Shown piece after piece: positions 44,391 through 58,991 of a stretch of 64,000 bases of DNA. The notes below the pieces were generated by a model. The model was not told where the DNA came from and did no database searches. It saw nothing but the letters and a program-made list of their open reading frames with translations. Position numbers and translations under genes: made by a program. How positions within the stretch are numbered: position 1 is the stretch's first letter; every line of letters starts with the position of its first letter. Origin of the DNA: a virus; the IMG/VR virus record IMGVR_UViG_3300034104_002622, positions 1 to 64,000 of that record; one strand, 5' to 3'.

Positions 44391-44392
44391 GA

Positions 44393-45157: not shown

Positions 45158-45185
45158 ATTTTTGTTTTTCTTGTTTGTTTGTTGT

Positions 45186-45776
45186 TTACTTAATGAAAAC
45201 TGAAGCGCATTCTGAATAAGCTGCGACTACGAGTGGTTCTTTCCCATAGGGAGTGTTTCTGGCTTTTTCCATCTTGGCATTTAGATCCTCTAAGGATTTT
45301 TGGATCTTAAAGGATTCGATGATTTTGTCCATCATTCCGTCACTTTTTTGCGAGGTGGCTTTACTTTGATCAGAATTGTCCTTTCCGTGCGTTTCCGTAG
45401 CGTCTGCGTCTTTGGTGTCATCAATGCAGAACAAGCCGTTCAGGGCGTATTTACGGGCGTAGGAGGAGCAAGCGCCCGTCACTTGAGCGTCATCCATACC
45501 TTTTTTGCTTTCAGCTTCACGAGCAAATGCTGTGGTGGAGATGCTTTCTCCTGCATGAGTGAATGTTGCTGTAGCTTTTACGTAAACACGCCCACCAACT
45601 TCAACAATTTCATCGCTGATGGTTAGGATTGCGTCCACTGCATGAAGAAATGGCTTGAGGGCTTCAAGAATTCCCTCTGCGGATCTGTATTTGTAATTTC
45701 CAAATTTGTTCTCAAGGTTTTTTGGAGCGTTGAGGTCAACTTGGATTGTTCTTAGTTTGTCTGCTGCTTTTTGCAT
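45186..45776 (-). CDS. erf: ERF-family single-strand annealing protein
   Basis: NKFGNYKYRSAE...KKGMDDAQVTGACSSYARKYALNGLF. Confidence 0.9.
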   Translation of the reverse strand: MQKAADKLRTIQVDLNAPKNLENKFGNYKYRSAEGILEALKPFLHAVDAILTISDEIVEVGGRVYVKATATFTHAGESISTTAFAREAESKKGMDDAQVTGACSSYARKYALNGLFCIDDTKDADATETHGKDNSDQSKATSQKSDGMMDKIIESFKIQKSLEDLNAKMEKARNTPYGKEPLVVAAYSECASVFIK

Positions 45777-45855
45777 TTATTTATTTGTTTTGATTTAGTT
45801 AAGGCTAAAATATATTCGAACAGTTCGATACACTGAACGCTGCGCATCAGTGATC

Positions 45856-46059
45856 TTAGCTGTTATCCAAAGAAATCAGCAGTTTGGCGGCGCGTTCCAG
45901 TTCAGGATTGAGCCAGTCCCTCTTTTGCGGTAGATCCGTAAGGATGTTGCGAATCACATAGAGCGCATCCGCTAGGCGGTCAGCGGCTTCATTCGATGGG
46001 CGATAGACTCCCGAGCTATTGTCTCGGAGCCATTTGATTAGTTCAGCGTTTGATTTCAT
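45856..46059 (-). CDS. Cassette-borne hypothetical protein
   Basis: 67 aa; ends LDNS* inside an attC. Confidence 0.7.
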   Translation of the reverse strand: MKSNAELIKWLRDNSSGVYRPSNEAADRLADALYVIRNILTDLPQKRDWLNPELERAAKLLISLDNS

Positions 46060-46114
46060 AATTTCGGAAGATGGATAACAAGTTTGTAGAGGCGACGACG
46101 GGCAGCGTCCCCAT

Positions 46115-46354
46115 TCAGGTTGGTAGTCCTTTCCCGTCGTCGCGCCTCACATCGGCGTTAGCGGAAGATTTCAGAATGGCTTCCAGTTTCCATTTAACGT
46201 GATAGAACCAGTCCTGACTGATCCGCCCTGAGAAGGTTGCCATGTCTCCATCGTCCTCAACGTCCGAGTAGTCCAACTCGTCAAGAATCCCGAAGATCGC
46301 TAACAAGTCATGCGAGGCAACCTCTACAACGTCTTTTGGTGGATTCTGGCTCAT
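46115..46354 (-). CDS. Cassette-borne hypothetical protein
   Basis: 79 aa; starts in one attC and stops in the next. Confidence 0.65.
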   Translation of the reverse strand: MSQNPPKDVVEVASHDLLAIFGILDELDYSDVEDDGDMATFSGRISQDWFYHVKWKLEAILKSSANADVRRDDGKGLPT

Positions 46355-46641
46355 GCGTTCGGTGCCTCCATATTTGCGTTAGGCAGAATTAAATCTTCAC
46401 GTTCGCGCCAGAATGCCAGTTGTTCAGACCAATCGCCGGCAAACATCTCCAACGGATATATTTCGTCGTTTTTCCGGTGCAGTTCCCTCCATGAGGATTC
46501 AAAATCCTCAAGGGATTTGAGTTGCTCAAATATAAACTCGTCTAACGTCAAAGAATGCCGAACAAGACGTGAGACGCAATCCCCACTAGTCTCCTGTTGG
46601 GTTAGGGTTTTCTGCTTCGGTGGTGATTTATCGTTTGGCAT
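46351..46641 (-). CDS. Cassette-borne hypothetical protein
   Basis: 96 aa; starts and stops in attC loops; ATGA overlap at 46351-46354. Confidence 0.7.
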   Translation of the reverse strand: MPNDKSPPKQKTLTQQETSGDCVSRLVRHSLTLDEFIFEQLKSLEDFESSWRELHRKNDEIYPLEMFAGDWSEQLAFWREREDLILPNANMEAPNA

Positions 46642-46903
46642 GGTCTTGGGGTATAAGTGGTGGGGATGCGTCTACATTGACGTTCGTAGGTGAGAATTGC
46701 AGTTCATCCAGCATATCGCTTGGATTGTTATTTCCGTTTGCCATCGCTTCAATCCATCGCGCTGGGTCAATCGTTGCGGTGTGCTTCCATCCTTTATCTA
46801 AAAGTTTTGCTTCTACTTCTTGAAGCTCTTGGTCTGAGTAACATTTTATCATTCCATCAAGAGCGTAAATAAAAAGCATTCGATCTAATCTAATTGTTTT
46901 CAT
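46628..46903 (-). CDS. Hypothetical protein ending in attC of array 1
   Basis: Likely start MKTIRL; GWKHTATIDP motif. Confidence 0.65.
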   Translation of the reverse strand: MKTIRLDRMLFIYALDGMIKCYSDQELQEVEAKLLDKGWKHTATIDPARWIEAMANGNNNPSDMLDELQFSPTNVNVDASPPLIPQDHAKR

Positions 46904-47144
46904 GTGTTTTGGGTTTTGCTGGTAAAACATTAAATATTTCAACTACTGGCTTTCCTGTCTCTGGATGACTAATCATTTTAAACTCAACATCAAATTTTTT
47001 GATGCGTTCTCTAAAGTTATAAGCCATGTCAAAATCTGGAAACTCAACGTAAAGGTTAGAGTCGCGTTGGCTTACTTCTTCTTCAAGTCCAGAGTCTTCT
47101 AAAGCTCGCTGAAGGTAATAAGGTAAGTATTGGATGACACTCAT
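46890..47144 (-). CDS. Hypothetical protein
   Basis: 84 aa, coupled to neighbours. Confidence 0.6.
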   Translation of the reverse strand: MSVIQYLPYYLQRALEDSGLEEEVSQRDSNLYVEFPDFDMAYNFRERIKKFDVEFKMISHPETGKPVVEIFNVLPAKPKTHENN

Positions 47145-47494
47145 TTTTTAAGTTGTTTTAGGTTTTCGATGAATTGCGCTGCTTCTGTTGCTGTTACCGT
47201 AATGTTAGAGCCGGGGTCGATAGTTGTTTGTGCTCCTCCTGTCCAAGAGTTGCCTATTCGTTTAGCTGGAGAAGGCATAGACATTATCTTCCAATGGACA
47301 ACTGAGCATTCTGATACTTTCCATGAATAGGGATTACCAGCTTGCCATTCATGATAGATGGCTGATGCCGACTGTTTAAGTGACCATTCAACCACTTTAT
47401 TTTCTTTAAGTAGTTCTTGGGTGTAACGCATAGCATTTAGCCAAAGCTTCTGCTTGGCTACTTGATGCAGCGATTCGATTAGATTCACACTCAT
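47141..47494 (-). CDS. Hypothetical protein
   Basis: Likely start MSVNLI, just downstream of a GAA hairpin. Confidence 0.6.
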   Translation of the reverse strand: MSVNLIESLHQVAKQKLWLNAMRYTQELLKENKVVEWSLKQSASAIYHEWQAGNPYSWKVSECSVVHWKIMSMPSPAKRIGNSWTGGAQTTIDPGSNITVTATEAAQFIENLKQLKK

Positions 47495-47499
47495 GACAA

Positions 47500-47754
47500 T
47501 CAATCCTCTAGCCCCGAAGGGGCTTTGCGCGCTATTAGCATTGCGTCGGCGATTGAGTATGCTCCTTTGGCAACGTCGCAATTCCAGTTGTAAGACATTG
47601 CGGCTCTTCCGGACGCTACCATGATGGCAATAGCGATATTTTCACTTTGCATGGCTTGCCCAGCGAACCAGTCGCGCAGACTCATGCCGCGTAATGCGTC
47701 GTCTCTTTCGTGCATCGGGAACGCTTGCCCGCCGTTGTCTTGTGGTGTGTTCAT
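47500..47754 (-). CDS. Conserved phage hypothetical protein
   Basis: GGQAFP...GMSLRDWFAGQAM...AYSIADAML family motif. Confidence 0.8.
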   Translation of the reverse strand: MNTPQDNGGQAFPMHERDDALRGMSLRDWFAGQAMQSENIAIAIMVASGRAAMSYNWNCDVAKGAYSIADAMLIARKAPSGLED

Positions 47755-47756
47755 TT

Positions 47757-48599
47757 TTATTTTGATTCACGTTTGTATTGTTCGCAAACATCTTTGAATC
47801 CACAGAATGAATTGCAGAATGTTTTTTCACCTTTGCGAATTTCTACTGTTTGATTTGGTTTTTTGAGTTCTTCTGCTTCTGATAGCGTGTCGCATAGTTT
47901 TGAAGCTCGCTTGGCTCCGGGCGACATGATTGCGTAAACTGATGGCTTTTCCCATTGCTCTTCTGCTGTGCATGGGCGTGGTGAGCCATTATAAGCCTTC
48001 CAGTGGTCTTCTACGGTCTCTTTAATTAGCTTGGCTGCGAAGTCTTGATCATAGGGTTCTACGTAGATAGCAAAGGGTGTTTGCGGATACGTGGGGTCGA
48101 AGGTTGAGCGCATGTAGGACCAATCACGTTGAAGGTAAACAATTGAAACGTGTTCTACTTCATATCCATTTTTTTCTGCTAACCATCCATTGATTTGAAT
48201 TTGTTGGCGATGTTCTGGTTTCATTTTTTCCTGAAAACCAGCAGTGTTTTTGTAGTCGAACACTGTTTTATTTTCGTAGAAGTCTATTTGTCCTGAAATT
48301 GCAATGGTCTCTCCAAGATATGGATACTCATAGTGAAGTCGTTCTTCTGCTACTTCTCCGTTTTCAGTATCTACGTTATCTTCTAGGATGGAATGAATAG
48401 CTGTTCCCATCAAAGCATGGAACATAGTGTAGGGATTTTCTTGCTTTTCGTGGTTCTTTGCCAGCCATGTGCGTTGCGGAGGAGAGATTAACTGCGTGGT
48501 TGAAAATAAAGACTTTCCTTTTTCATACTTGTCTTTTGACAAAGCGCGAATGAACGGGCTAGGAAAGCTTTTGAGGTAGGATGCTGGTGTTTGTTTCAT
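47757..48599 (-). CDS. PD-(D/E)xK (Cas4-like) exonuclease
   Basis: GTAIHSILE, ISGQID, FDYK, QIQIN, C-terminal CxxxC-C; lies near erf. Confidence 0.85.
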   Translation of the reverse strand: MKQTPASYLKSFPSPFIRALSKDKYEKGKSLFSTTQLISPPQRTWLAKNHEKQENPYTMFHALMGTAIHSILEDNVDTENGEVAEERLHYEYPYLGETIAISGQIDFYENKTVFDYKNTAGFQEKMKPEHRQQIQINGWLAEKNGYEVEHVSIVYLQRDWSYMRSTFDPTYPQTPFAIYVEPYDQDFAAKLIKETVEDHWKAYNGSPRPCTAEEQWEKPSVYAIMSPGAKRASKLCDTLSEAEELKKPNQTVEIRKGEKTFCNSFCGFKDVCEQYKRESK

Positions 48600-48796
48600 T
48601 GTTCGATAATAGTGTATTCGTTTTTTTCGAGCAGGAATCCCGGTAATGGACCGATGAAGATCAATTCTCTTTCTTTCCAGTCAGGAATATTCATTGCGTA
48701 GACTGCCGTATAAATTTTTTGTGGATCAAGCTCTAAGTCAGTTCCTAAGAGCTTGTAAGCTTTGTCTGGTTTTACTTTGAATTTTTTGGATCTCAT
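48596..48796 (-). CDS. Hypothetical protein
   Basis: 66 aa, ATGA-coupled. Confidence 0.6.
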   Translation of the reverse strand: MRSKKFKVKPDKAYKLLGTDLELDPQKIYTAVYAMNIPDWKERELIFIGPLPGFLLEKNEYTIIEQ

Positions 48797-48800
48797 TTAT

Positions 48801-49049
48801 TTAATCTTGAGCTTCTATAATTACGTTCCAGATTGAGTCAGGTATCATATCTCTAACTGCTGTGTCTGCGTATCTTGCTAGATTTCCAGCTTCTTTCCAC
48901 TTTTTTGATTTGTAAAAAAAAAGGATTTTTCTTAGGATTTTTCTGTCTTCTGTATACATTTTTCTTATGCTTTGATCTTCATCATGCTCAGCTTGGTGAT
49001 TTTTAATGATGTGCTTAAAAAGTTTGATTGCGTTTTCATCTATTGTCAT
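48801..49049 (-). CDS. Hypothetical protein
   Basis: 82-aa ORF. Confidence 0.6.
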   Translation of the reverse strand: MTIDENAIKLFKHIIKNHQAEHDEDQSIRKMYTEDRKILRKILFFYKSKKWKEAGNLARYADTAVRDMIPDSIWNVIIEAQD

Positions 49050-49083
49050 TTTGAATTCTTTTTTTATTTAGTCAGGCTAAATT

Positions 49084-49284
49084 TTAATCGAGCACACTGC
49101 GTCCACATAGCATTATAATGGTGTAATATGGCGGGAAATCATCTCCTGCACACATTTCTATTCCCTTCAGCAACCCAAATTCAATGCAATTTGCGTTGAT
49201 GCTGTTTTTTCTGAATCCTGAATTTTTAATCAGTTTTTCCAGTTTGTTTTTTATTTCTTCTTCTGTCGGTATGTTTTTATTCAT
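49084..49284 (-). CDS. Hypothetical protein
   Basis: 66-aa ORF. Confidence 0.55.
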   Translation of the reverse strand: MNKNIPTEEEIKNKLEKLIKNSGFRKNSINANCIEFGLLKGIEMCAGDDFPPYYTIIMLCGRSVLD

Positions 49285-49331
49285 TGTGATTTTAGCGTTG
49301 ACAAATTTTTTGATTGCTTTAGGTAGCGCTC

Positions 49332-49574
49332 ATGGAAAAGAGATTCAAGAAAGTAATCACTAACCCTGCGACTGGTCGCAAGAAAACTGTGAAGTTTGGA
49401 CAGGCTGGCAAGGCTGCTGACGGTGGGGATCGCATCAGGCCGGGAACTTCTAAGGGTGACGCTTATTGCGCTCGCTCTGCTAAGATTAAAGGTGATTGGA
49501 AGTCCAATCCTAATTCGCCTAACAACCTTTCACGCCGGAAATGGAAGTGCAAAGGCAGCAAGTCTATGAAGTAA
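49332..49574 (+). CDS. Small basic phage protein
   Basis: VKFGQ...PGTSKGDAYCARS...SRRKWKC, a widespread aquatic-phage family. Confidence 0.75.
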   Translation: MEKRFKKVITNPATGRKKTVKFGQAGKAADGGDRIRPGTSKGDAYCARSAKIKGDWKSNPNSPNNLSRRKWKCKGSKSMK

Positions 49575-49600
49575 TTGCTTTCTGAATCAGAAACAGCTTT

Positions 49601-49777
49601 ATGAAAAAAAAATCTACTGTCAACTCTTCTGGTAACTACACAAAGCCTACCATGAGAAAAGCCTTGTTTAATCGCATTAAAGCTGGCACGAAAGGCGGTG
49701 ATCCCGGCGAGTGGAGCGCCAGAAAAGCTCAGCTTTTAGCTTCTGAGTATAAGAAAAAAGGCGGAGGCTACAAATAA
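49601..49777 (+). CDS. Small basic protein (58 aa; below ORF-track cutoff)
   Basis: NYTKPTMRK...GGDPGEWSARKAQLLASEYKKKGGGYK. Confidence 0.8.
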   Translation: MKKKSTVNSSGNYTKPTMRKALFNRIKAGTKGGDPGEWSARKAQLLASEYKKKGGGYK

Positions 49778-49810
49778 CAACTCTCATTAAACGTAAACTA
49801 AAATAAAAAT

Positions 49811-49972
49811 ATGAAAGCAAAACCAAAGAAAGCAATGGTGTCTCCTAAGTCTAAAAAAGCAATGTCCAAGCCAATGTTAAAAGCAGCGGCTTCGAAAAAG
49901 ATGGCCAAGAAAATGCCTAAGAGTATGGCAATGGGCATGAAGATGGGAATGCCTAGCAATATGGGATATTAA
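49811..49972 (+). CDS. Lys/Met-rich basic peptide (53 aa)
   Basis: MKAKPKKAMVSPKSKKAMSKPM... after an A-rich leader. Confidence 0.65.
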   Translation: MKAKPKKAMVSPKSKKAMSKPMLKAAASKKMAKKMPKSMAMGMKMGMPSNMGY

Positions 49973-49987
49973 TCCTATTTTGATTGA

Positions 49988-50218
49988 ATGAAAGCACCTC
50001 AACAATCCTTGAAAGATTGGACAGCCCAAAAATGGCGAACCTCTGATGGTAAGCCAAGCAAGGGCAAAAAGAGGTATTTGCCTGATTCTGCGTGGAAGTC
50101 TTTGACGGCTTCTGAAAAGGCTTCCACGAATCGGGCAAAGGCTAAGGGTAATGCTCAAGGCAAGCAGTTTGTTAAGCAACCTAAGTCGATAGCTAGAAAA
50201 ACATCAGCACACAGATGA
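49988..50218 (+). CDS. Small basic protein (DUF5872-like, tentative)
   Basis: SLKDWTAQKWRT...RYLP...GKQFVKQPK. Confidence 0.7.
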   Translation: MKAPQQSLKDWTAQKWRTSDGKPSKGKKRYLPDSAWKSLTASEKASTNRAKAKGNAQGKQFVKQPKSIARKTSAHR

Positions 50219-50847
50219 GAAACGCCAACCTACCAAAGTGTCGAGTTTACGTCCGTTGTGATGCCTTTGGTGGCAGTGAGACAGAGTTTGAACCTGCGTG
50301 GTTAGTCAGCGTCCGAGCGATGCGTAATCGTCCATTTTGTTTTCAAGTTTGGGTAGATAAATACGCTGCTTGCTTTGACAAGATTCCGCCACAGTGCATC
50401 TACCATTACGAGCCGGATGGGAATCAAGCTAACTTACCGCTTCACAAGGTGCAAATGTGGGAGTGTTTATCTGGCAGCATTGAAGTCTGGCAGAAGAGTC
50501 AGCTTTGCGATGTGCCGATGCTTGTCAACATGGGTAAGGGTTTTGCTCCGATGACTGGGCATTACTGGTTTACGATTGATTTTTTACCCGAACATCAATG
50601 TGCAGGAATACTGGACATTGGTGACGTTGAGTTGCTGGAAGAGCACAAAGAGGGAAACGTGGTAAAGTTGTCGAACGGACAGATTGCCATCTACCCAAAT
50701 AATAGGCTTAAATGGTTGCCTATAAGCCTTGTGAAAGAAGGCGCGGCAGAACGCATCCCTAGCTGGGAGGTTGCCACAAACGAGCAATGGGACGACTGGT
50801 GGCAAGACTCATCAGAAATCCTCGGAGACTCCAAGTGGGCTTACTAA
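50215..50847 (+). CDS. Conserved phage hypothetical protein
   Basis: 210 aa; YWFTIDF...EHK...NGQIAIYPNNR. Confidence 0.75.
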   Translation: MRNANLPKCRVYVRCDAFGGSETEFEPAWLVSVRAMRNRPFCFQVWVDKYAACFDKIPPQCIYHYEPDGNQANLPLHKVQMWECLSGSIEVWQKSQLCDVPMLVNMGKGFAPMTGHYWFTIDFLPEHQCAGILDIGDVELLEEHKEGNVVKLSNGQIAIYPNNRLKWLPISLVKEGAAERIPSWEVATNEQWDDWWQDSSEILGDSKWAY

Positions 50848-51043
50848 TATTTAATTGTTTAGCTTTAATTTGTAGGTCTTTTGTTGTTTTTTCCATGTGC
50901 TCAAGAAGAATGTCTTGCATCCAATATGGAGGACAGCGTCTTCCTGACCTCCAATCGTAAGCTGTTGGCATAGAGCATCCAATTTTTTCAGCAATTTGCT
51001 TAGCTGTGTATTTTGATATTTTTTGTTTGAATGTTTTTTTCAT
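50759..51043 (-). CDS. HTH DNA-binding protein
   Basis: TAKQIAEKIGCSMPTAYDWRSGRRCP, Cro-like HTH. Confidence 0.75.
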   Translation of the reverse strand: MKKTFKQKISKYTAKQIAEKIGCSMPTAYDWRSGRRCPPYWMQDILLEHMEKTTKDLQIKAKQLNISKPTWSLRGFLMSLATSRPIARLWQPPS

Positions 51044-51051
51044 GTTTTTAA

Positions 51052-52221
51052 TTACAGGTCAATTTCCAAATGAATGCTCCATGCTTTAACAAGTTCGTTC
51101 ATTAGAAATTGCTCAAAACGTCTTGATTCGTCTGAATAGCCAATTGTATGACAATGCTCTTCTAGCAGCGTGGTAATCAAAAAAAACAATCCTTGGTCAA
51201 AAGAACGTTCTGTTAAGTGGATAATTTCTGAATGAACAAAAGCGATGTTTAAGTTATCTTCATTTGAGATATATTTGATTTTTGCTTTTACGTCGTATCC
51301 CATTTTTGCCAAAAACTCTTTAGCCTTGGCTAACATCCGTTCGTGGCGCTCAGGCATTTCAATTTGATTGAACTCAGCGTCAGGCAATTGGCTGCGTATT
51401 TGGTGTTGGAGATTACTGATTAGTTTGGTGGGGGATTCTTCCCAGATTTCAGCTACAACTTCTTTCATTGTTACTCCCCACGTGCCGTAATATCCACGGT
51501 CAGCTTCCCAATTAGGTTTTTTCGCTGTAAATAAGTGTTTTAAGATAGACTTATTCGTTAGTTTTTCGATGCCTCTTTCAATAGACCGATAGACATCGTA
51601 GATATTAAAGATAGTGCGATCTTCTGTAAGTTTTACTTCATCTAGCAATTCGTAAGAATACATCGCTTCTTCGATGAAGCCTACCTTAACTCCACGATAA
51701 AATATTTCGCCATCTCCTTTGTAAATGTTGATTTTGTCGGAAGAGGCAATAGGGACGCGAGCACCTACGAAAATGTTTTCGTGATTGTCATAGCACTCTG
51801 CAAATTTTTTGTGAGTGATATAGATAGTGCTGTCTTGTATTGAAACTGGGTGGCGACCCCATTCTCCTCCTTCGTCTATTGTATTCGAAACAAGCTCACG
51901 GTAGGCTCCTTCTAGCTCCCACTGCTTTCCAAGTTCTGTTGTAAATCCAAGCTCACGATCATTGCAAGTAATTACATCAAATGTTTTTCCACGGAATTCT
52001 TTAGTTTCTTTTCCAAATTCATATATCCCATTGGGAGTGATGATGCTGACTGTTGCGTTTTCACGAATGAGAACAGCTAAGGCTAATTTCATTCCGGTTC
52101 CAAAGAAGCCAATTGGAGAATTATTATCTGGTTTAGCATTAATTCCCATAATACTCCAGCTTTCAGGGTGAAGAATGCCAGGAGTGGTAAGCATTATTGT
52201 ATTTGAACAATCTGTATTCAT
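51052..52221 (-). CDS. GHKL-like ATPase domain protein with C-terminal zincin-like motif
   Basis: IGFFGTGMKLA, RELVSNTIDE, TLLEEHCH. Confidence 0.65.
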   Translation of the reverse strand: MNTDCSNTIMLTTPGILHPESWSIMGINAKPDNNSPIGFFGTGMKLALAVLIRENATVSIITPNGIYEFGKETKEFRGKTFDVITCNDRELGFTTELGKQWELEGAYRELVSNTIDEGGEWGRHPVSIQDSTIYITHKKFAECYDNHENIFVGARVPIASSDKINIYKGDGEIFYRGVKVGFIEEAMYSYELLDEVKLTEDRTIFNIYDVYRSIERGIEKLTNKSILKHLFTAKKPNWEADRGYYGTWGVTMKEVVAEIWEESPTKLISNLQHQIRSQLPDAEFNQIEMPERHERMLAKAKEFLAKMGYDVKAKIKYISNEDNLNIAFVHSEIIHLTERSFDQGLFFLITTLLEEHCHTIGYSDESRRFEQFLMNELVKAWSIHLEIDL

Positions 52222-52306
52222 TGTTTATTTGTTTATTTGTTGTTACAAATCAACCTCAAGCCCGAAGGGCTTTAAGTTTATTGATTTATGATTTATTTGT
52301 AATTGT

Positions 52307-52438
52307 TCAGTATCTCTTTGAGCAATTAGAGCAAACGCTCTGTCCGTGCTTTGTGAAGATCAAGGGTGTTTTGCAGTCGCGGCAAAAGCCGAAGAACTTG
52401 CAGGGTTTTCTGAGGTAGTAGCGTAGTTTGCATCTCAT
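52307..52438 (-). CDS. 43-aa Zn-ribbon peptide (founder cassette, copy 1)
   Basis: MRCKLRYYLRKPCKFFGFCRDCKTPLIFTKHGQSVCSNCSKRY; paralog at 56823-56954. Confidence 0.75.
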   Translation of the reverse strand: MRCKLRYYLRKPCKFFGFCRDCKTPLIFTKHGQSVCSNCSKRY

Positions 52439-52484
52439 GGTGTTTGTTGTTGTTCAAACAGGTTGATGCACTGAACGCTTTGCG

Positions 52485-52712
52485 TCACCGATCTTGGCTG
52501 TTCGGAATAAAAACTCGCATCCAGAATGCGACGGGCTGAGACGATGTTTGTCCGCGCCACCCGAATCTTTTGCTCCATGATCCTTTGTCCCACCAACCGT
52601 CAGCGCGGATGATGACTACTTGTTCACCGTCATTCGGCAATGTTGAATCGGCAGAAAAGATTTCCGAACAATTCGTGAGAGGCAACGCCTCGGAGTTTTC
52701 TTGTGTATTCAT
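52485..52712 (-). CDS. Cassette-borne hypothetical protein
   Basis: 75 aa; LPNDGEQV...VAFWM (DUF551-like); starts and stops in attC sites. Confidence 0.65.
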   Translation of the reverse strand: MNTQENSEALPLTNCSEIFSADSTLPNDGEQVVIIRADGWWDKGSWSKRFGWRGQTSSQPVAFWMRVFIPNSQDR

Positions 52713-52748
52713 AGTCGTTAAGGGCGTGCCTCCACAGAGGCGTTCGAC

Positions 52749-52907
52749 TTACTCATAGAAGGCCAGCTTGATCTTTTGTTGTGTCACATCCAGACTCAGC
52801 AATGACCAAGAGTGCCCGGTGTTGAAGTTTTGGACATCAATGACTGAGATTCTCCAGCCACCGTCAGGCCGGATGTAGAGTTTGAAGAGTTGTATTTCGA
52901 TTTCCAT
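52749..52907 (-). CDS. Cassette-borne hypothetical protein
   Basis: Likely start MEIEIQ; stop lies just before the core site. Confidence 0.55.
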   Translation of the reverse strand: MEIEIQLFKLYIRPDGGWRISVIDVQNFNTGHSWSLLSLDVTQQKIKLAFYE

Positions 52908-52927
52908 GTTAGTGTGGTGTGTTGTCG

Positions 52928-53203
52928 TTACAAAGTCGAACAAGGCGCGGCAGATAACCGCTCTGGGCTATCTGTCGTATTTGCCACGTCCTGGGTTCGC
53001 GGTATCTGCGCTTGGGCGTTAGCCTGAAGAATAAATTTTGCCTCACGCTCAAGCTGCGGGTCGAGCCAATCCCTTTTTTGCGGAAGGTCATTGATGATTC
53101 GCCGCAAGACCGATTCGACCGATCCAGCAAATGCAATCATGTCTTCGATGGCTCGCGGCTTAGGGATGCGGCTTCGTATTTCGTCTCGTATTGGTGTATT
53201 CAT
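52928..53203 (-). CDS. Cassette-borne hypothetical protein
   Basis: 91 aa; reads completely through attC 52935-53024. Confidence 0.65.
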   Translation of the reverse strand: MNTPIRDEIRSRIPKPRAIEDMIAFAGSVESVLRRIINDLPQKRDWLDPQLEREAKFILQANAQAQIPRTQDVANTTDSPERLSAAPCSTL

Positions 53204-53258
53204 AATTCAAAGAGGCTAACAAGTGGATGCTGGCAACGGCGGGAGTTGCCCTGTTGGT

Positions 53259-53534
53259 TTATTCGGAGTCCAGCGCCCGCCGCGCCAGATCCTTGTCGTT
53301 CGGCTTAGAAAGCATGAGTAGCGTCCATGAGATTGTAACCAGCACCAAGATACCCAACGGGAGTCCGATCTTAGCGGTATTGCCTGAGTCCAGACGGGTC
53401 AGCACCGATGAGAGAAGAAAGCCCATCTGGAAGGTTACAATCAGTGTCGTGATTAGCCACGCTTTGAAACGTGCCGAACAAAGCGTAGATGGCGATTCCG
53501 AGGAATCGCTCTGTTCAAGTTTTGGGGTAGTCAT
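53259..53534 (-). CDS. Cassette-borne membrane protein (2 TM)
   Basis: Two hydrophobic helices; starts and stops in attC loops. Confidence 0.7.
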   Translation of the reverse strand: MTTPKLEQSDSSESPSTLCSARFKAWLITTLIVTFQMGFLLSSVLTRLDSGNTAKIGLPLGILVLVTISWTLLMLSKPNDKDLARRALDSE

Positions 53535-53580
53535 AATGTTTGATTGATGTTGAGAGAGTCACTGAGCCTCGGAACCGCCA

Positions 53581-53835
53581 TTACTCGACGTTCTGGCCAT
53601 ACAATGCAGACAAGATGGCATCGACGCGCCCTTGCGCTGGATCGGTTCCTTTGCGCCGGTGTTCGTGCAGATCCTCGTCCTCCATGAATGGGACTTTCAC
53701 GATGACTATCAACTCGCCCGCTTCGTCTCGGAGCCATCCCCAATCAGCATGTTTGGATCGGTCATGGGAGAGACGCCCAACCCAGCCAGAACAAGTCGTG
53801 AGAGGCAACGCCTCGGAGTTTGTTGGTGTATTCAT
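53581..53835 (-). CDS. Cassette-borne hypothetical protein
   Basis: Start MNTPTN in attC loop; DWGWLRD...EHRRKGTDP. Confidence 0.7.
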   Translation of the reverse strand: MNTPTNSEALPLTTCSGWVGRLSHDRSKHADWGWLRDEAGELIVIVKVPFMEDEDLHEHRRKGTDPAQGRVDAILSALYGQNVE

Positions 53836-53881
53836 AGTCGTTATTGGCGTGCCTCCACAAAGGCGTTGTAGCAAAGAATGC

Positions 53882-54187
53882 TCATTTGCGGCGATCTCCG
53901 AGGATTCCAAGCATGGAGGTTGTGCCGCGTTGCCGTGGCATCAAGACCCGCTCTCCGGGTTCGCCGCGATCCCCTCCGCATTGGGCGTGTGTCCCATCCT
54001 CGAATCGGGCAAGGGTCATTACATCCGTTCCCACGTATCCCCAATTCGTGCCCTCTTTGACGACCTTCCTGACGATTGCGGGTTCGTCCACGTAGTAAGG
54101 CATTACAGACATTGCCTCCAGCCCGAATCCGAAGACTGCTATTGCGGATGCGCAGAGCGCGGCGATTCCAAGGTGTTCAAGTTTCAT
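53882..54187 (-). CDS. Cassette-borne protein with N-terminal TM/signal segment
   Basis: 101 aa. Confidence 0.65.
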   Translation of the reverse strand: MKLEHLGIAALCASAIAVFGFGLEAMSVMPYYVDEPAIVRKVVKEGTNWGYVGTDVMTLARFEDGTHAQCGGDRGEPGERVLMPRQRGTTSMLGILGDRRK

Positions 54188-54262
54188 ATTTTATCGGAGT
54201 TTGAGATTGGTTCGGAAGAGCTACAACAAGCGGATCGTGGCAACCCGCTCCCGCCCGCCATT

Positions 54263-54505
54263 TTAGATTTGATCGGGCTTCACTGGTGCGGGATCGGTTG
54301 CCACATCCTCGGCGTTCTCGGATAACTTGTTGAGGGCGCGGCGGTGGTGCTTGTAGCGGTTGTCGTGGTGGCATGATCCATCGGAGCAAGTGAAGGTCAC
54401 GGGGTCGCCTACTCTTTCGAGGTGGTAACACGCCCACACTGAATGCCAGCTTCCGAGAACAAGGCGTCGCACGCCGACGCCGCGAAGTTTTGTGATGATT
54501 TTCAT
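54263..54505 (-). CDS. Cassette-borne hypothetical protein
   Basis: 80 aa; ATGA overlap inside attC 54454-54541. Confidence 0.55.
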   Translation of the reverse strand: MKIITKLRGVGVRRLVLGSWHSVWACYHLERVGDPVTFTCSDGSCHHDNRYKHHRRALNKLSENAEDVATDPAPVKPDQI

Positions 54506-54825
54506 GGTTTATTTTCGGCGCGGGTGGACTCGACGTTCGCAGAAATAAGGCCCGCGACGAGTTCGGGGACTTTCAGAGCCAGAACGTCTTCCTGTATGCT
54601 CCCATCGTCCGATGTCTTTGCTGCCTCGCCGAACATCTCCCCTATCTGGGTGACGATTCCGTGATAGAACGCCTCGTTCCGTGAGAACTGAGCGGCAGAG
54701 TCCATCCATGCGGCAATCCGCTTTGCCACGGCTTCCGCAAGGACAACGTCCATTTCAATGTGCTTGGTTTCATCGTCGCACCAGCATTGGGCGGCGATCT
54801 GTCTTGCTTCTTCGATGTATGTCAT
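54502..54825 (-). CDS. Cassette-borne conserved phage protein
   Basis: AAQCWCD...MDVVLAEA...SDDGSIQEDVLALKVPELV. Confidence 0.75.
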   Translation of the reverse strand: MTYIEEARQIAAQCWCDDETKHIEMDVVLAEAVAKRIAAWMDSAAQFSRNEAFYHGIVTQIGEMFGEAAKTSDDGSIQEDVLALKVPELVAGLISANVESTRAENKP

Positions 54826-54863
54826 AAGATAAAATTCTGCGAACAAGGCGGTCCACGGAACGG

Positions 54864-55235
54864 CTACCCGTTGGACGCTTTGGGTGAAGGTTGAGTCTCA
54901 GCCACGGGTAGCCGCGCGTGGCCTTGTTCGTTCGGGGTTAGGGATTGGAGGGCATCACAAATCATGGATTGCAGTGCCTGACGTGCAAACAGAGCTTGAT
55001 CTTCGCCTCCGCATTCTCGGCAACTTGTCCCATCCGCTATTAGACGCAGTTTCTCCGCCAGCCTGTCGCGCTGCTCGGTGACTGTCTTATTTTCCATCAT
55101 CAGGGATAAAGCGGTTGTCTCTATATTTGCATATTTGTTTTTTAGAATATCCAGTTCTTCTGCAATCTGATACCAAGATTTACCGCTAAGGCATAGAGCC
55201 TTCCATCTTTCGTTTGTGGTTGGTGTATTGTTCAT
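54864..55235 (-). CDS. Modular coiled-coil family protein; ends in attC
   Basis: QRDRLAE and QSLTP blocks. Confidence 0.7.
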   Translation of the reverse strand: MNNTPTTNERWKALCLSGKSWYQIAEELDILKNKYANIETTALSLMMENKTVTEQRDRLAEKLRLIADGTSCRECGGEDQALFARQALQSMICDALQSLTPNEQGHARLPVAETQPSPKASNG

Positions 55236-55528
55236 GCTTCCTTCGGGGTTAGGGATTGGAGGGTTGTTTCGGCAAGGTCTTTTGCTGATTGTGGGTCTTC
55301 GTGAATCAAATTGAAAACACTACAAAGATTATCCGCCAGCCTGTCCCGCTGTGCGGTGACGGTGGCGAGTTCCTCCTGTGCCTTGGCGAATCCGTAGTCC
55401 ATAAACTCGCGGGTTCGGATTGTCTCCTCCCGTGCCTCGTCCCGCTCGCGTTCTAACCTTCTGGCGAAGTCTATGCTAACTCTACCTGTCCCAAACTGGG
55501 CTTCGTCGGTTTCTGGTGTGTCGCTCAT
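55232..55528 (-). CDS. Modular coiled-coil family protein
   Basis: TPETD, ERERDEARE, QRDRLA, QSLTP blocks. Confidence 0.75.
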   Translation of the reverse strand: MSDTPETDEAQFGTGRVSIDFARRLERERDEAREETIRTREFMDYGFAKAQEELATVTAQRDRLADNLCSVFNLIHEDPQSAKDLAETTLQSLTPKEA

Positions 55529-55884
55529 TTCGCGCCCTCCAATGCTTTTTCTGCTTTGATTTGTGATCTATCCCATCCAACTCCGTAAAGGTCGCCGTGA
55601 ACTTGCCTAATGTATCGCCAGCCAGATAGCATATCGCGCAAAGCCTCCCGCGCCTTGTCCCGCTCGCGTTGCAATGTCTTAGCATGATCCCAGATAGTTC
55701 CGTTGGGGTCGCGGAGTTCGCAACCAAGGTCTTTGTTTTGTTGGATGTATTTTGCCTTCCATTCGTCGCGTTCGCGTTTGAGTTCTGCGTTGGTTTCCTT
55801 TAGGAATTGCTTGTATGCTTTTATGTCCTCTATGTTGGTTGCTTTTAACGTAGATTCGTCCGTCTCAGGTGTGTCAGTTTTCAT
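55525..55884 (-). CDS. Modular coiled-coil family protein
   Basis: TPETD and two RERD blocks. Confidence 0.75.
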   Translation of the reverse strand: MKTDTPETDESTLKATNIEDIKAYKQFLKETNAELKRERDEWKAKYIQQNKDLGCELRDPNGTIWDHAKTLQRERDKAREALRDMLSGWRYIRQVHGDLYGVGWDRSQIKAEKALEGAK

Positions 55885-56132
55885 GGCTTCTGGGTTAGGG
55901 ATTGGAGGGCTTGCTGGGCTTTTTCAAATGCTTCTGGCATGGATACTGGCATAAAATCAACGCTGTCAATACAGTTGCAAGATTCTATCAAGTCTTGTAG
56001 TGCCTCCGCCAGCCTGTCCCGCTGTGCGGTGATGGTGGAGAGTTGGTGTTTGAGTCTTGTTATGATTTGACTAATGTAACATGCGACTGCAATGATTGTA
56101 ATGGCTGGGGCAATTATGTCTAAATAGTTCAT
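55881..56132 (-). CDS. Modular family protein with N-terminal TM
   Basis: QRDRLAEAL and QSLT blocks. Confidence 0.7.
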   Translation of the reverse strand: MNYLDIIAPAITIIAVACYISQIITRLKHQLSTITAQRDRLAEALQDLIESCNCIDSVDFMPVSMPEAFEKAQQALQSLTQKP

Positions 56133-56452
56133 GGCTTATGGGTTAGGGATTGGAGGGCTTCGGTTGCAACAAATCTAGCTCCGTGACCATTATCGCATTG
56201 GAGGTCTGAGTAATCGAATGTCGTAATCATTTGCAACGCTTCCACCAGCCTGTCGCGCTCGTCTAATGTCTGTGCCAGTTTCTTGCCCATGCGCTCGTTG
56301 GCATCGTTTAGTTCTCGGCAAACACTCGACATCCTCCATTGCTCCCGTGCCTCGTCCCGCTCGCGCCTTGCTTCTTTTAAGAGTTCCCATGCAGCCAGTT
56401 CACATTGAAGGTCGTTCTCAGCATCCGTCTTAGGTGTTGGTTGTGTATTCAT
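56129..56452 (-). CDS. Modular coiled-coil family protein
   Basis: Start MNTQPTPKTD; RERDEARE, ERDRL, QSLT blocks. Confidence 0.7.
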   Translation of the reverse strand: MNTQPTPKTDAENDLQCELAAWELLKEARRERDEAREQWRMSSVCRELNDANERMGKKLAQTLDERDRLVEALQMITTFDYSDLQCDNGHGARFVATEALQSLTHKP

Positions 56453-56811
56453 GGTTCTTTGTTCGGGTTGGTTGTCCACTTTCTAATCGTGCGAAAGAAA
56501 GCTTCTGCGCGTTGGGCGGCGGTTGCGGTAATGCACATATCAAAATCCATTTGTGCTTTTGTTACTCCAGCTTCTCGGCGGATCGCTTTTTTGATTTGTT
56601 GCGTGTATTTCTTTGGGAGATTCGGGTCGCCATAAAGCATTTTCTCGGCTTCGTGCATCGCGTTTAAGTCGTTGCAGTAGTCGGGAAGCTGGTGAACGTC
56701 ACGCGATAGACGCGCTTGTGGCGGTCGCCAGTATCGAATCTGTGAATTTCCCACGTGGGAAATCCATCCGCACGACTCAGCGATGGCGATTCTTTGCGCT
56801 TTTGGTTTCAT
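56449..56811 (-). CDS. Conserved phage protein, paralog of 58387-58842
   Basis: RIAIAESCGW...LPDYCNDLNAMHEAEK...ATAAQRAEAF. Confidence 0.75.
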   Translation of the reverse strand: MKPKAQRIAIAESCGWISHVGNSQIRYWRPPQARLSRDVHQLPDYCNDLNAMHEAEKMLYGDPNLPKKYTQQIKKAIRREAGVTKAQMDFDMCITATAAQRAEAFFRTIRKWTTNPNKEP

Positions 56812-56822
56812 ATTTTTGTAGT

Positions 56823-56954
56823 TCAATATCTCTTTGAGCATCTAGGGCAGATGCCCTGTCCGTGTTTTGTGAACATCAAGGTCGCCCTGCAATCGCGGCA
56901 GAAACCGAGAAACTTGCAGAGTTTTCCGAGGTAGTATCGTAGTTTGTATTTCAT
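56823..56954 (-). CDS. 43-aa Zn-ribbon peptide (founder cassette, copy 2)
   Basis: MKYKLRYYLGKLCKFLGFCRDCRATLMFTKHGQGICPRCSKRY. Confidence 0.75.
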   Translation of the reverse strand: MKYKLRYYLGKLCKFLGFCRDCRATLMFTKHGQGICPRCSKRY

Positions 56955-57002
56955 TGTGATAATTGAATTATAATCGAACAGGTTGATGCGGTGAACGAAG
57001 CG

Positions 57003-57308
57003 TCACCGATCTTGGCTGTTCTCGGAAGAAATTTCCGCAGCCATCTTGTCCATGACAGCTTCAGCCGCCACATGCCCGCGATGTTTCAGCAGTTGCCGGA
57101 TGCGGTGCTTTAGCTTGTTTTCGCTGCGTTCGAGCGCCTTGGCGTGTTCCTCCATCTTTTCGAGGTTGTGCCAGTCTTGCCAGTTGTTCCGCTTTATCTC
57201 TTCGGAGAGAGCGGCGGTCTTGGGAGTTTCGCGGAGTCGCTCGGACAAAGAAGACCGAGAACAAGTCGCCGCACGCAACGGGCTATCACTTTTCAATTTC
57301 TTTTTCAT
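57003..57308 (-). CDS. Cassette-borne hypothetical protein
   Basis: Start MKKKLK in attC loop; ends ENSQDR* in the next attC. Confidence 0.7.
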   Translation of the reverse strand: MKKKLKSDSPLRAATCSRSSLSERLRETPKTAALSEEIKRNNWQDWHNLEKMEEHAKALERSENKLKHRIRQLLKHRGHVAAEAVMDKMAAEISSENSQDR

Positions 57309-57336
57309 GGTCGTTTCAGGTTCGCCCGTGCGTGGG

Positions 57337-57612
57337 CTAGGCGTTAGCAAGATGAAGTTTCACGTAGTCCATCGCCGCCCGTTTCGCTTTGTCCTCGGAG
57401 AGAGGTTCGTCGTTGCAGGAATTGTAAAGCGGCACACTTTTGCCTCTTGCCACCCAATACCAACCTTGCTTCCCGCTGTGTCGGCGAGAATACTCGTAGG
57501 CGTTGGCGTATTCCTCCCCTCCCATGTTGAGCGAGTGTCCGGGATGACCGCTGCATACACCCGCAAGCCCTGTCGGACGCGGATTCTTTTTCCATCTCAA
57601 TGCCTGTTTCAT
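57337..57612 (-). CDS. Cassette-borne conserved phage protein
   Basis: LRWKK...TGLAGV...GWYWVA...AKRAAMDYVK; ends LANA* in attC. Confidence 0.75.
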   Translation of the reverse strand: MKQALRWKKNPRPTGLAGVCSGHPGHSLNMGGEEYANAYEYSRRHSGKQGWYWVARGKSVPLYNSCNDEPLSEDKAKRAAMDYVKLHLANA

Positions 57613-57645
57613 ATTTGTTTGGAGTTTTGGGGTTATTCGGTTTCG

Positions 57646-57882
57646 CTAACAAATCGCCGTATCCAACGGCGGCCAGATCTTTATTTTAGTCGGCGTCCTT
57701 TCCGCCGTGGATAGGTTCGGCGTACACTTTTGGACTTCGATGCAAAGCTGTTCGTAAATCATGGTCGCTTTATAAGGGTGTAGTGTGACCCCTCGGGCTT
57801 TGAAATTCGCCACGATTCGGTGGCGTTCTTCCGAGAGAAAACGAATGAGGCTGTCCGGCTACGGGGGCGGTACTGTATTCAT
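57646..57882 (-). pseudogene. Small ORF with in-frame TAG at codon 8
   Basis: MNTVPPP*PDSLIRFLSEERHRIVANFKARG...; TAG at 57861-57859. Confidence 0.45.
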
Positions 57883-57904
57883 TTGCTGAATTTTTTTATT
57901 GAAA

Positions 57905-58363
57905 TTATACTTTGATAACTAAATGTTCTTTTGAATTGAAAATAGACTCTAATAAATTTTCTAAAGCAATTGAAAGATCTGGGTTATCAAGCAATGGGTT
58001 AGGGCTTTTTAATGATTCTTTAATTTTATTTTTGGTTTCATTTTTATCGAAATATCCAATTGAATCAGCTTTTTGGTATTTTTCTCCAAGTTTATTGAAC
58101 AACGAGTCATTCATAACAAATCTGATGCTTACATCTCCCCGGTAATTTACTTCTACTTCAAGTTCGTTTAGTCGCTTTGGGATAGCGATTATTGCCTTTT
58201 CTTTGATTTCTTCTATGATTTTTTCTTGTTTGATGTTGGCTTCTTCTTTTTGCTTATTGAACTTTTCTTTAGCTTTTACAACTAAAGCTTCGATAAGTTG
58301 AGATTTAGTGGGTTTAGGTTGTGTTTTTTTGATTTTGTTTGGCAGTATTAGTGTTGTATTCAT
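57905..58363 (-). CDS. Hypothetical protein
   Basis: 152 aa, AT-rich. Confidence 0.7.
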   Translation of the reverse strand: MNTTLILPNKIKKTQPKPTKSQLIEALVVKAKEKFNKQKEEANIKQEKIIEEIKEKAIIAIPKRLNELEVEVNYRGDVSIRFVMNDSLFNKLGEKYQKADSIGYFDKNETKNKIKESLKSPNPLLDNPDLSIALENLLESIFNSKEHLVIKV

Positions 58364-58386
58364 ATCGTTTGATTTTATTTTGTGTT

Positions 58387-58842
58387 TTATTTGGAAAGAG
58401 TTTTTACGAAAGCTTCTGCGCGTTGCGCGGCGGTTGCGTCAAGTAAAGTTTCTGCATCCCATTCGTTACGATTTACTTTTCGCTTTTTTATTATGTTGGC
58501 TAAGTGGTCGTTAAAAATACTTCGGAAGCTCCAGTCCATTTCCCAAAGCACTTTTTCCGCTTCGTGCATCGCGTTGAGGTCGCTGAGGTAGTCGGGTAAG
58601 TTTTCTACAACGAAGCATTTTTCTTCTTTGCGAAAAAGCAGGGTTTTAACTGGTTCGTATCCTCCTTGGTAACTATTAAGGGAGGCGTTCCACGTTGGGA
58701 CATCGGCGTATTCACGAGTCCACCCACACGCTTCTGCTATGGCTATTCTGATCGCAGATTTGCTGTTTTGCTGGTCGATCTCTTGCTGGAGTTTGTGCTC
58801 TTTGGCCAGACCCATATCATCTTCTTCGGGGAATCCGTTCAT
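58387..58842 (-). CDS. Conserved phage protein, paralog of 56449-56811
   Basis: RIAIAEACGW...LPDYLSDLNAMHEAEK...ATAAQRAEAF. Confidence 0.75.
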   Translation of the reverse strand: MNGFPEEDDMGLAKEHKLQQEIDQQNSKSAIRIAIAEACGWTREYADVPTWNASLNSYQGGYEPVKTLLFRKEEKCFVVENLPDYLSDLNAMHEAEKVLWEMDWSFRSIFNDHLANIIKKRKVNRNEWDAETLLDATAAQRAEAFVKTLSK

Positions 58843-58991
58843 GGTTGGTAGTCTTGGTGTATTTTTGTGTCGTGATCAAAAGATTCGTAGATTTCTTTTT
58901 TTATTGATTGAATTAATAGTTTTGTATCTTCAATCATTAGTTGCAGTATTAGTATTAGCATTCCTGTTAATGCGAATGTTAGAGTTATCAT
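58839..58991 (-). CDS. 50-aa membrane peptide
   Basis: MITLTFALTGMLILILQLM...; TGA overlaps the next ATG. Confidence 0.55.
   Translation of the reverse strand: MITLTFALTGMLILILQLMIEDTKLLIQSIKKEIYESFDHDTKIHQDYQP

Follow-up and report, generated by a model that had tools for sequence, protein, structure and literature searches.

We analysed a 64,000-nucleotide (nt) stretch of viral DNA, hereafter the window, which is the first 64 kb of IMG/VR virus record IMGVR_UViG_3300034104_002622 (73,283 bp, rated complete by CheckV). From about 33 kb onwards the open reading frames (ORFs) of the window lie on the minus strand. Between positions 45815 and 57728 this part of the genome holds three groups of imperfect hairpins that resemble the attC recombination sites of bacterial integrons, with small genes set between them. 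A preliminary description of the window had read these groups as a phage-borne, integron-type cassette system.

Sixteen attC-like sites in three arrays

The 16 sites all lie on the plus strand, measure 52-132 bp and form arrays of four, nine and three (Table 1). Their layout is that of the aadA1 attC of plasmid R100 read in the sense of its gene: an R'' box, 5 nt, 3 bp, one extra base and 6 bp, and, on the far side of the hairpin, L', 5-6 nt and R'. The position of the extra base and the spacers make plus the canonical top strand. Every R'' contains AAC, and R' contains GTT in 15 of the 16 sites, the last one having GTA. The R' box of each site is complementary to the R'' box of the next, a chain rule that holds at seven of seven positions in 11 of the 13 intervals and at six of seven in the other two. 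Within a single site R'' and R' pair at only 3-5 of 7 positions, and a mere 4 of 241 non-adjacent R'/R'' pairs reach 7/7.

We cast this anatomy as a strict rule: AAC, 5 nt, 3 bp plus one extra base plus 6 bp, then 9 bp, 5-6 nt and GTT, with at least 8 of 9 Watson-Crick pairs. The rule matched 12 times on the plus strand of 45701-57800, compared with 0.09 ± 0.30 times (maximum 2) in 200 dinucleotide shuffles of the same segment, and gave no match on either strand of the other 61.2 kb of the genome. When it was relaxed to 7/9 pairs and combined with the chain rule, 14 of the 16 sites were recovered; the remaining two (54838 and 57644) have weaker L boxes. Folded as single-stranded DNA, the minus strands of the sites form bulged hairpins as expected. 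Their z-scores are negative in 15 of the 16 cases, site 3 (46298) folding no better than its shuffles, and in nine sites the stability of the fold is matched by at most 6 of 200 shuffles.

The sites were also compared with a covariance model, R1, built from 42 short attC sites of bacterial IntI loci and containing no phage sequence. Run with filters off over both strands of the window (128 kb) at E ≤ 10, R1 returned 15 matches. Thirteen have the coordinates of listed sites, all on the plus strand and seven of them at E < 0.01; the two off-target matches have E values of 0.62 and 4.2. Applied to the arrays of sister and unrelated phages, the model found sites on one strand only.

Re-reading bears out the 16 plus-strand sites in three arrays of the preliminary description, most of which the strict rule and the covariance model, a check that it had itself put forward, also find, and its chain counts (11 intervals at 7/7 and two at 6/7) are exactly reproduced. 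Two details needed amendment: the size range of 54-132 bp is right at its upper end and too high at its lower, and the GTT given for R' does not extend to the last site.

Table 1. Features of the window. Bits and E are scores with model R1; L, paired positions in the L box; chain, pairing of R' with the R'' of the next site; z, fold z-score of the minus strand; aa, amino acids.
Feature	Coordinates	Strand	Details
ERF-family single-strand annealing protein gene	45186-45776	-	PF04404, E 3.1e-42; flanks array 1; context, not cassette
attC site 1	45815-45868	+	Opens array 1; minimal 54-bp family; R'' TTCGAAC, R' GTTATCC; L 9/9; 17.4 bits, E 0.085; chain 7/7
Cassette 1 gene	45856-46059	-	67 aa; paralogue of cassette 7 gene; crosses R', AAC in frame, stop 7 nt past G; no Pfam family
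attC site 2	46073-46163	+	R'' GGATAAC, R' GTTAGCG; 42.6 bits, E 1.9e-7; chain 7/7
Cassette 2 gene	46115-46354	-	79 aa; ATG in loop of site 3
attC site 3	46298-46384	+	R'' CGCTAAC, R' GTTAGGC; 26.1 bits, E 9.7e-4; chain 6/7; z +1.16
Cassette 3 gene	46351-46641	-	96 aa; ATG in loop of site 4
attC site 4	46557-46688	+	Last of array 1; 132 bp; R'' GCCGAAC, R' GTTCGTA; L 8/9; missed by model on +
43-aa gene	52307-52438	-	Cys-rich (zinc-ribbon-like); immediately left of first site of array 2; second copy at 56823-56954; homologues in L013, L015
attC site 5	52453-52506	+	Opens array 2; minimal family; R'' TTCAAAC, R' GTTCGGA; L 7/9; missed by model; chain 7/7
Cassette 4 gene	52485-52712	-	75 aa; leader MNTQENSEALPLTNCSE encoded by family A hairpin
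attC site 6	52663-52748	+	Family A hairpin; 86 bp; 24.1 bits, E 0.0027
Cassette 5 gene	52749-52943	-	Up to 64 aa; own stop directly before R'
Cassette 6 gene	52928-53203	-	91 aa
attC site 7	52935-53024	+	29.0 bits, E 2.1e-4; chain 7/7
attC site 8	53214-53304	+	25.1 bits, E 0.0016; BLAST match to attC beside intI in G022, G020
Cassette 7 gene	53259-53534	-	91 aa; hydrophobic; ATG in loop of site 9
attC site 9	53473-53596	+	124 bp; L 9/9; 16.5 bits, E 0.14; z -2.71
Cassette 8 gene	53581-53835	-	84 aa from loop ATG; family A leader
attC site 10	53786-53871	+	Second copy of family A hairpin; 18.2 bits, E 0.058; chain 7/7
Cassette 9 gene	53882-54187	-	101 aa; own stop before R'
attC site 11	54221-54320	+	L 9/9; 15.3 bits, E 0.25; z -3.41
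Cassette 10 gene	54263-54505	-	80 aa; ATG in loop of site 12
attC site 12	54454-54541	+	27.2 bits, E 5.3e-4; chain 7/7
Cassette 11 gene	54502-54825	-	107 aa from ATG
attC site 13	54838-54936	+	Last of array 2; R' GTTCGGG abuts paralogous gene cluster; 14.7 bits, E 0.35; z -4.94
Second copy of 43-aa gene	56823-56954	-	Left end GTTCAAT against R'' ATCGAAC 6/7 (by hand)
attC site 14	56973-57024	+	Opens array 3; minimal family; L 9/9; missed by model; chain 7/7
Cassette 12 gene	57003-57308	-	101 aa from loop ATG of site 15
attC site 15	57256-57349	+	29.4 bits, E 1.7e-4; chain 6/7
Cassette 13 gene	57337-57612	-	91 aa; ends in LANA and stop; AAC of R' in frame (by hand)
attC site 16	57644-57728	+	Terminal, degenerate; R' GTACACT; 11.9 bits, E 1.4
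tmRNA gene	60734-61128	-	Rfam RF00023, 137 bits; tag peptide GNNVIRGNFGSNTVALVA

Cassette boundaries and exchange in nature

The chain rule had been presented in the preliminary description as the strongest evidence. The rule holds, but it is symmetric and therefore cannot by itself show which R box is the crossover; that required the extra base, the covariance model and the boundaries of shared cassettes. In one group of hairpins, family A, R'' stays with the hairpin (GCCGAAC in 10 of 16, tallied by eye) and R' is nearly always different. Three cassette families occur beside unrelated neighbours. Their homology begins 1-3 nt before the G/TT of the left R' (the slash marks the point of exchange), and its right end falls in a stretch from 4 nt ahead of the G of the right R' to 6 nt beyond it. 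The shared blocks take in the right-hand hairpin and leave out the left one, so the unit is a gene together with the attC at its right, cut at G/TT. We also considered a crossover at R'' with minus as the top strand, an arrangement in which the genes would sit normally before their attC; it is ruled out by the travelling of R'' with the hairpin while R' varies, by shared blocks that include only the right-hand hairpin, and by model matches that all lie on plus.

A sister phage, G001 (70,641 bp), is 93-99% identical to the present genome in the flanks of the arrays (44498-45822, 46676-47144, 47814-52502 and 57895 onwards), and its array contents differ from those of the window. The G001 contig ends within its array 2, and its array content is therefore incomplete. 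Homology between the two phages resumes at the L'/R' end of site 4 (46676) and stops within R' of site 5. The second cassette of array 1 in the window (46158-46378) reappears in G001 with 99% identity, there placed after the first site of array 2, the match starting from the G of R'. Array 1 of G001 (reverse complement of contig L010, around 1700-1725 of the joined sequence) also contains a junction with no hairpin, ACCGAAC AATAA GTTCGCG, in which only 5 nt separate R'' from R'; it resembles either an attC whose stem has been lost or a simple site.

The array stretch was found in 24 lake or freshwater metagenome runs, and contigs from four of these runs were aligned with it. One lake contig joins 45861 to 46157 within the GTTA common to two R' boxes, a precise loss of cassette 1. 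One has the G001 arrangement, and three more carry other sequence up to 46157; the further left neighbours of cassette 2 in lake contigs all break at this same position. A variant in which 52672 is joined to 53796, a 1123-bp deletion, was present in three lake runs, its joint lying within 26 nt common to both family A hairpins. Joints whose shorter side is just 24-31 letters long (45840 to 52482, 52505 to 55888, and in a cluster of paralogous genes) are hints at most.

Cassette genes in a reversed layout

Bacterial cassettes served as the control for gene orientation. Eighty genome loci with IntI1 or class-1-like integrases, run through the same script, yielded 52 chain-linked intervals, all on the strand opposite intI. 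The longest ORF was in the sense orientation in 50 of these 52 intervals, whereas in phage arrays 38 of the 46 chain-linked intervals had an antisense ORF as their longest. All 13 cassette genes of the window lie on the bottom strand, and the canonical polarity, with the gene on the attC top strand and upstream of its site, was not seen there.

These genes keep a fixed frame with respect to the sites. Among antisense ORFs of phage arrays, AAC is in frame in 39 of the 39 that cross R', and seven stop before it. Eleven of the 13 window genes cross R' in frame (10 by script, one by hand), two stop before it and none is out of frame; phage arrays linked to intI gave 9/9 crossing ORFs with AAC in frame and two that stop before R'. 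In the AAC frame a stop codon lies within the hairpin in 58 of 64 unique hairpins, at a median of 27 nt past R', compared with only 18 and 23 of 64 in the other two frames, where the medians exceed 100 nt. A loop ATG is the start codon of 7 of the 13 window genes. Two further regularities were tried and dropped: a ribosome-binding site in the L' arm as a general feature, found at only 3/7 loop starts, and a universal in-frame fusion at R'', where the reading frame varies between hairpin families (by hand).

Family A adds a coding element. All 19 of its instances open ORFs of 57-130 aa that start with a 17-aa leader, MNTPTNSEALPLTNCSA, and continue into unrelated bodies; four contigs retain the leader half but lack the second hairpin arm. 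In contigs L013 (around 7495-7560) and L015, TTATTCG/TTATCCG heptamer repeats lie directly upstream of a DUF4326-like gene that has the family A leader and no second arm.

Six of 41 antisense cassette ORFs from the wider pool of phage cassettes matched Pfam families, four of them at E < 1e-13, and because of these matches we conclude that the antisense cassette ORFs are real genes. The families are C5 and N6/N4 DNA methylases, Mom and DUF4326, with weaker matches to a methyltransferase and to Lar; the methylase, Mom and Lar matches apply to the pool as a whole and are not tied to single loci. Ten cassette ORFs of the window searched against Pfam matched no family.

A cassette pool in unrelated phages, some with an integron integrase

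A 21-mer of family A (site 6) occurs in 17 IMG/VR contigs and 34 metagenome contigs; it was found in none of the records of genome_contigs, a bacterial and archaeal collection with one genome for each of 185,579 species. Many of the family A contigs carry chain-linked arrays, with up to 10 sites. Three complete or nearly complete family A carriers have a guanine-plus-cytosine (GC) content of 49-60% and almost no proteins in common with the present phage. Among the complete hairpin-bearing phages G000, G006, G014 and G017, 0-18 ORFs are shared pairwise and none across all four, and no phage enzyme is common to them.

Model R1 had no match at E ≤ 0.01 in 12 relatives of the phage's own family, and a search of low sensitivity, whose control recovered 5 of the 16 sites in G000, gave two weak matches in one of four relatives. 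Since the more distant relatives are without arrays at that sensitivity, the arrays look like a recent gain in the present phage lineage. The arrays have 49-54% GC compared with 41% for the DNA between them, which suggests that they are of foreign origin.

Searching IMG/VR with an integron-integrase alignment yielded 30 contigs that encode relatives of IntI. Ten of these records were tested, and all exceeded the curated NCBIfam cut-off for integron integrases (TIGR02249, 265 bits), six of them (G019-G024) with 278-313 bits. Records G040 and G041 score 352 bits. In G019-G024 the arrays lie upstream of intI and have GTTC-type boxes and antisense genes; R1 found 33 sites in these six loci, every one on the opposite strand to intI, as is canonical. 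Four whole records (G019, G021, G022 and G024) contain phage head, portal, terminase, tail-fibre or helicase/primase genes.

The sites of these phages resemble those of the window. In G022 and G020 the first cassette carries an attC, about 250-300 bp from intI, that matches site 8 at 92% identity over 88 nt, and in G022 this cassette abuts a TTAACT/GTTCTCT junction near the intI start. G024 has a family A-like site about 270 bp from intI, 80% identical over about 70 nt. A 22-mer of site 8 occurs in 22 viral contigs, seven of which have an IntI-type gene; four exceed the cut-off, among them a 39-kb record rated complete. The phage integrases are 38-44% identical to IntI1 and, in a small tree whose only bacterial rows were class-1-like integrases, stand apart from these. 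Relatives of the phage integrases are abundant in metagenomes. Their only named relative, a protein of a Verrucomicrobiota metagenome-assembled genome (3.7-kb contig, 79% identity), is a hint and no more.

Other features of the genome

Megablast of 40000-60000 against deposited phages gave no match, and the phage has no close deposited relative. Among 10 large ORFs the primase/helicase was the only one named by PHROGs, and it is only about 31% identical to proteins of many phages of many hosts. One ORF of 5353 aa occupies 16843-32904 on the plus strand and has no PHROG family in any of three segments. We did not adopt the label N4-like for this phage, because that ORF has no PHROG family and the primase/helicase alone was named. 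The intI-bearing record G022 has a 4715-aa ORF; it and the present genome have no ORF in common at E < 1e-8. A transfer-messenger RNA (tmRNA) gene was the sole Rfam match at the gathering score, with none inside the arrays, and blastn of this gene against deposited phages gave no match.

Several features adjoin the arrays. The ERF protein encoded beside array 1 could drive homologous deletions between repeated hairpins. The second copy of the 43-aa gene, together with site 14, looks like a cassette. To the right of array 2, five small paralogous genes stand in tandem (54864-56479, minus strand), with the motif GGGTTAGGGATTGGAGGGC at four gene junctions; a set of its own is present in G001, and the cluster has numerous rearrangement joints in lake contigs; these are not attC sites. 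G001 and one lake contig have about 1050 unrelated bases in place of a 678-bp segment at 47144-47823, and no attC was seen at the borders of this segment. At 49332-50847 a plus-strand island within the minus-strand block holds four small lysine-rich ORFs and a 210-aa ORF, the last 75% identical to an ORF of the otherwise unrelated phage G014. In one lake run, contig depth at 49316-49739 was far higher.

Discussion

Judged by their sequence, the sites would qualify as attC: they have the core boxes, the extrahelical base and the spacers, a bacterial covariance model recognises them, and cassette boundaries fall at G/TT. With arrays of four, nine and three sites, at least two attC follow one another with no integrase nearby, which is how section 3.4 of Qi et al. 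2023 (Front Microbiol, PMC9892861) defines a CALIN, an integrase-less attC cluster. A complete integron, with intI adjoining the array, is not present in this genome. Nor is an attI site with a Pc promoter indicated by the layout, in which the arrays open with minimal 52-54-bp attC sites, have no adjoining integrase gene, and hold genes that run against attC polarity.

We favour, as quite likely, the explanation that this stretch holds true integron-type gene cassettes, 13 of them with 16 attC sites, in three arrays that have no integrase, in a reversed layout and with the recombining enzyme acting in trans. Each mobile unit starts with the TT of one R' and ends on the G of the following R', and contains one small gene and, in plus-strand coordinates, the attC hairpin at its right. 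An IntI-type tyrosine recombinase would act on the folded minus (bottom) strand, excising circles and reinserting them at G/TT as in bacterial integrons. The best candidate for this enzyme is the integron integrase of other lake phages with the same attC families, which may be supplied in trans, for example by co-infection; alternatively, it may be the host's own integron integrase. The genes have the orientation of the minus-strand genes of the phage, and would be expressed by read-through from phage promoters. Read in the sense direction of its gene, each unit begins with a hairpin that often provides the start codon, and the gene then passes over the crossover with AAC as a codon and ends inside the following hairpin, where a stop codon in the AAC frame is retained; any order of cassettes would thus give properly ended, closely packed genes. 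Under such a convention, cassettes with neither a stop nor a promoter of their own could change places and yet be translated in succession from minus-strand transcripts, perhaps by translational coupling.

Several observations weigh against this explanation. Some concern the sites themselves. Site 16 is without GTT, and position 4 of R' is C in 9 of 15 sites, off the GTTRRRY consensus. Closure of the chain, first R'' against last R', reaches 6/7 in array 1 and only 4/7 in arrays 2 and 3. The gain in fold stability is modest, being matched by more than 6 of 200 shuffles in 7 of the 16 sites. Model R1 misses three sites (46557, 52453 and 56973), two of them the first of their arrays, and scores six further ones at only E 0.05-1.4. 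Others concern exchange: the left edge of array 1 departs from G001 right after the AAC of R'', which is the wrong box; the 52672/53796 joint, lying within 26 shared nt, reflects homologous recombination and not a G/TT event; and no recombination event was seen directly, exchange being read from assembled contigs. Of the 7 start codons in loops, only 3 have a GGAG-type ribosome-binding motif ahead of them, so translational coupling is something that we infer.

Further points concern the enzyme. The preliminary description had reported no integrase in the window, and this is true of the whole 73,283-bp record, which has no match to TIGR02249 or PF00589. None of the 17 viral records with family A encodes one; in the 12 relatives of the phage family there was none above the cut-off, with one 14-bit trace; and a search with IntI1 of 530 kb of loci found no integrase. 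The link to the phage IntI proteins is one of attC similarity: one site matches at 92% over 88 nt, another at 80% over about 70 nt, and a single 22-mer is shared.

The first of three other explanations holds that the cassettes came as one block out of a bacterial (host) integron and have since been fixed in the phage as ordinary genes, beside which the sites persist as leftovers. A genome that has no integrase, ends its last array in a degenerate site, belongs to a family whose distant members have no arrays, so that the gain is recent, and has arrays with GC above that of its backbone is what such a relic could look like. We judge it improbable all the same: sister phages with 93-99% identical flanks differ in the content and order of their cassettes, and one cassette has several left neighbours in lake contigs. 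Moreover, the family A 21-mer occurs in 17 viral contigs and 0 genome_contigs records, and the reversed, frame-locked design is common to the arrays of unrelated phages and absent from the 52 bacterial intervals.

Homologous recombination could instead have exchanged the modules, with the hairpins as linkers for ERF annealing or replication slippage and no part for a site-specific integrase. This would leave unexplained why R' and the next R'' are complementary across each gene, why homology ends at G/TT beside unlike hairpins, and why bacterial attC models match one strand only and intI lies beside the same site families. On these grounds we regard it as about equally improbable, even though an ERF gene flanks array 1, the 1123-bp deletion of three lake runs joins two family A hairpins within their common 26 nt, and hairpins are 83-95% identical across unrelated phages; homologous recombination probably adds to turnover and is not the founding mechanism.

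That the hairpins are expression signals only (terminators, or elements of translation coupling or processing in an operon of small genes) with a convergent likeness to attC is scarcely credible, for signals of this kind, whatever the start codons in 7/13 loops, the fixed-frame stop in 58/64 hairpins and the conserved 17-aa leader that the hairpin arms encode and that four contigs keep without the second arm, need neither AAC and GTT boxes complementary across the neighbouring gene nor an extra base at the canonical position, and would not move with single genes between unrelated phages at G/TT. Features of this kind are more plausibly a second layer built onto true attC sites.

The explanation by integron-type cassettes agrees with the remaining claims of the preliminary description, with two adjustments. 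Its G/TT-bounded cassettes are matched by related genomes and lake contigs, which differ by units ending at G/TT. It had proposed a phage-specific cassette pool moved by a host or unlinked IntI. A phage-specific pool that would be moved by an unlinked IntI fits our results; the enzyme need not be the host's, since phage intI genes adjoin the same attC families. It had also called integron elements very rare in phages, and rare they are, although an earlier case has been published (PMC9892861).

That case is described, in the sections of the paper that deal with phage attC sites, by Qi et al. 2023: 17 CALINs, each of at least two sites, in cultured or deposited phages, some of them virulent. 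The present arrays are therefore not the first. According to the same sections, IntI1 recombined five of six phage attC sites at G/TT in attC x attI1 assays, and complete phage integrons were confined to temperate phages or prophages. As far as those sections go, the two sets are alike in having attC arrays without integrase and DNA methyltransferases in their cargo. They differ in that two arrays of virulent phages are there oriented as in bacteria, whereas here all genes are reversed with a frame-locked stop/start junction, and in that we find 16 sites in three arrays, with attC families common to many unrelated, uncultivated lake phages. A further contrast with what those sections report is that some phages of the pool encode their own integron integrase, with no other tyrosine recombinase found on those records; this contrast is one of recombinase content, not lifestyle. 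In a literature search that covered sources outside subscription journals, this paper was the only one found on phage attC arrays, and none turned up that treats cassettes in reversed orientation in phages, junctions with a locked frame, or a clade of phage integrases.

The phage arrays have the site anatomy and the chain rule in common with class 1 and class-1-like bacterial integrons, and a model of the bacterial attC sites recognises those of the phages. In the intI-bearing phages, just as in bacteria, the attC top strand points away from intI. The two differ in gene orientation, sense in 50/52 bacterial intervals and antisense in 38/46 phage intervals, and in R', which in phages is mostly GTTC and not GTTRRRY. 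Sedentary chromosomal integrons, such as those with the Vibrio repeats, combine homogeneous attC sites with many unrelated small genes of unknown function in large pools; they are chromosomal, the integrase adjoins them, and their genes are mostly read towards attC. The likeness to the phage system lies in one attC family on many small genes. Here, in contrast, the pool is spread over unrelated phage genomes, and each gene reads away from its attC.

The recognisable cargo of the shared pool (DNA methylases, Mom and Lar) is anti-restriction functions. A broader proposal, to which we give an even chance of being right, is that lake phages run an integron system of their own, in which a clade of phage integrases and its integrase-less clients share a reversed pool rich in counter-defence genes, and attC is a portable start/stop unit, in family A with a whole 17-aa leader, that makes cassettes without promoter or stop expressible in any order. 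Bacterial integrons store anti-phage defence genes. The phage arrays suggest a counterpart in reverse, with unrelated phages exchanging counter-defence and other accessory genes by the very same recombination chemistry. If this is true, it would mean a new path for genes to move through viromes and a store of small anti-defence genes to draw on. That a single conserved hairpin is followed in frame by many unrelated genes may reveal how new cassettes come about, offering a handle on cassette genesis, and the reversed, frame-locked layout suggests that the integron platform can work without the logic of a Pc promoter.

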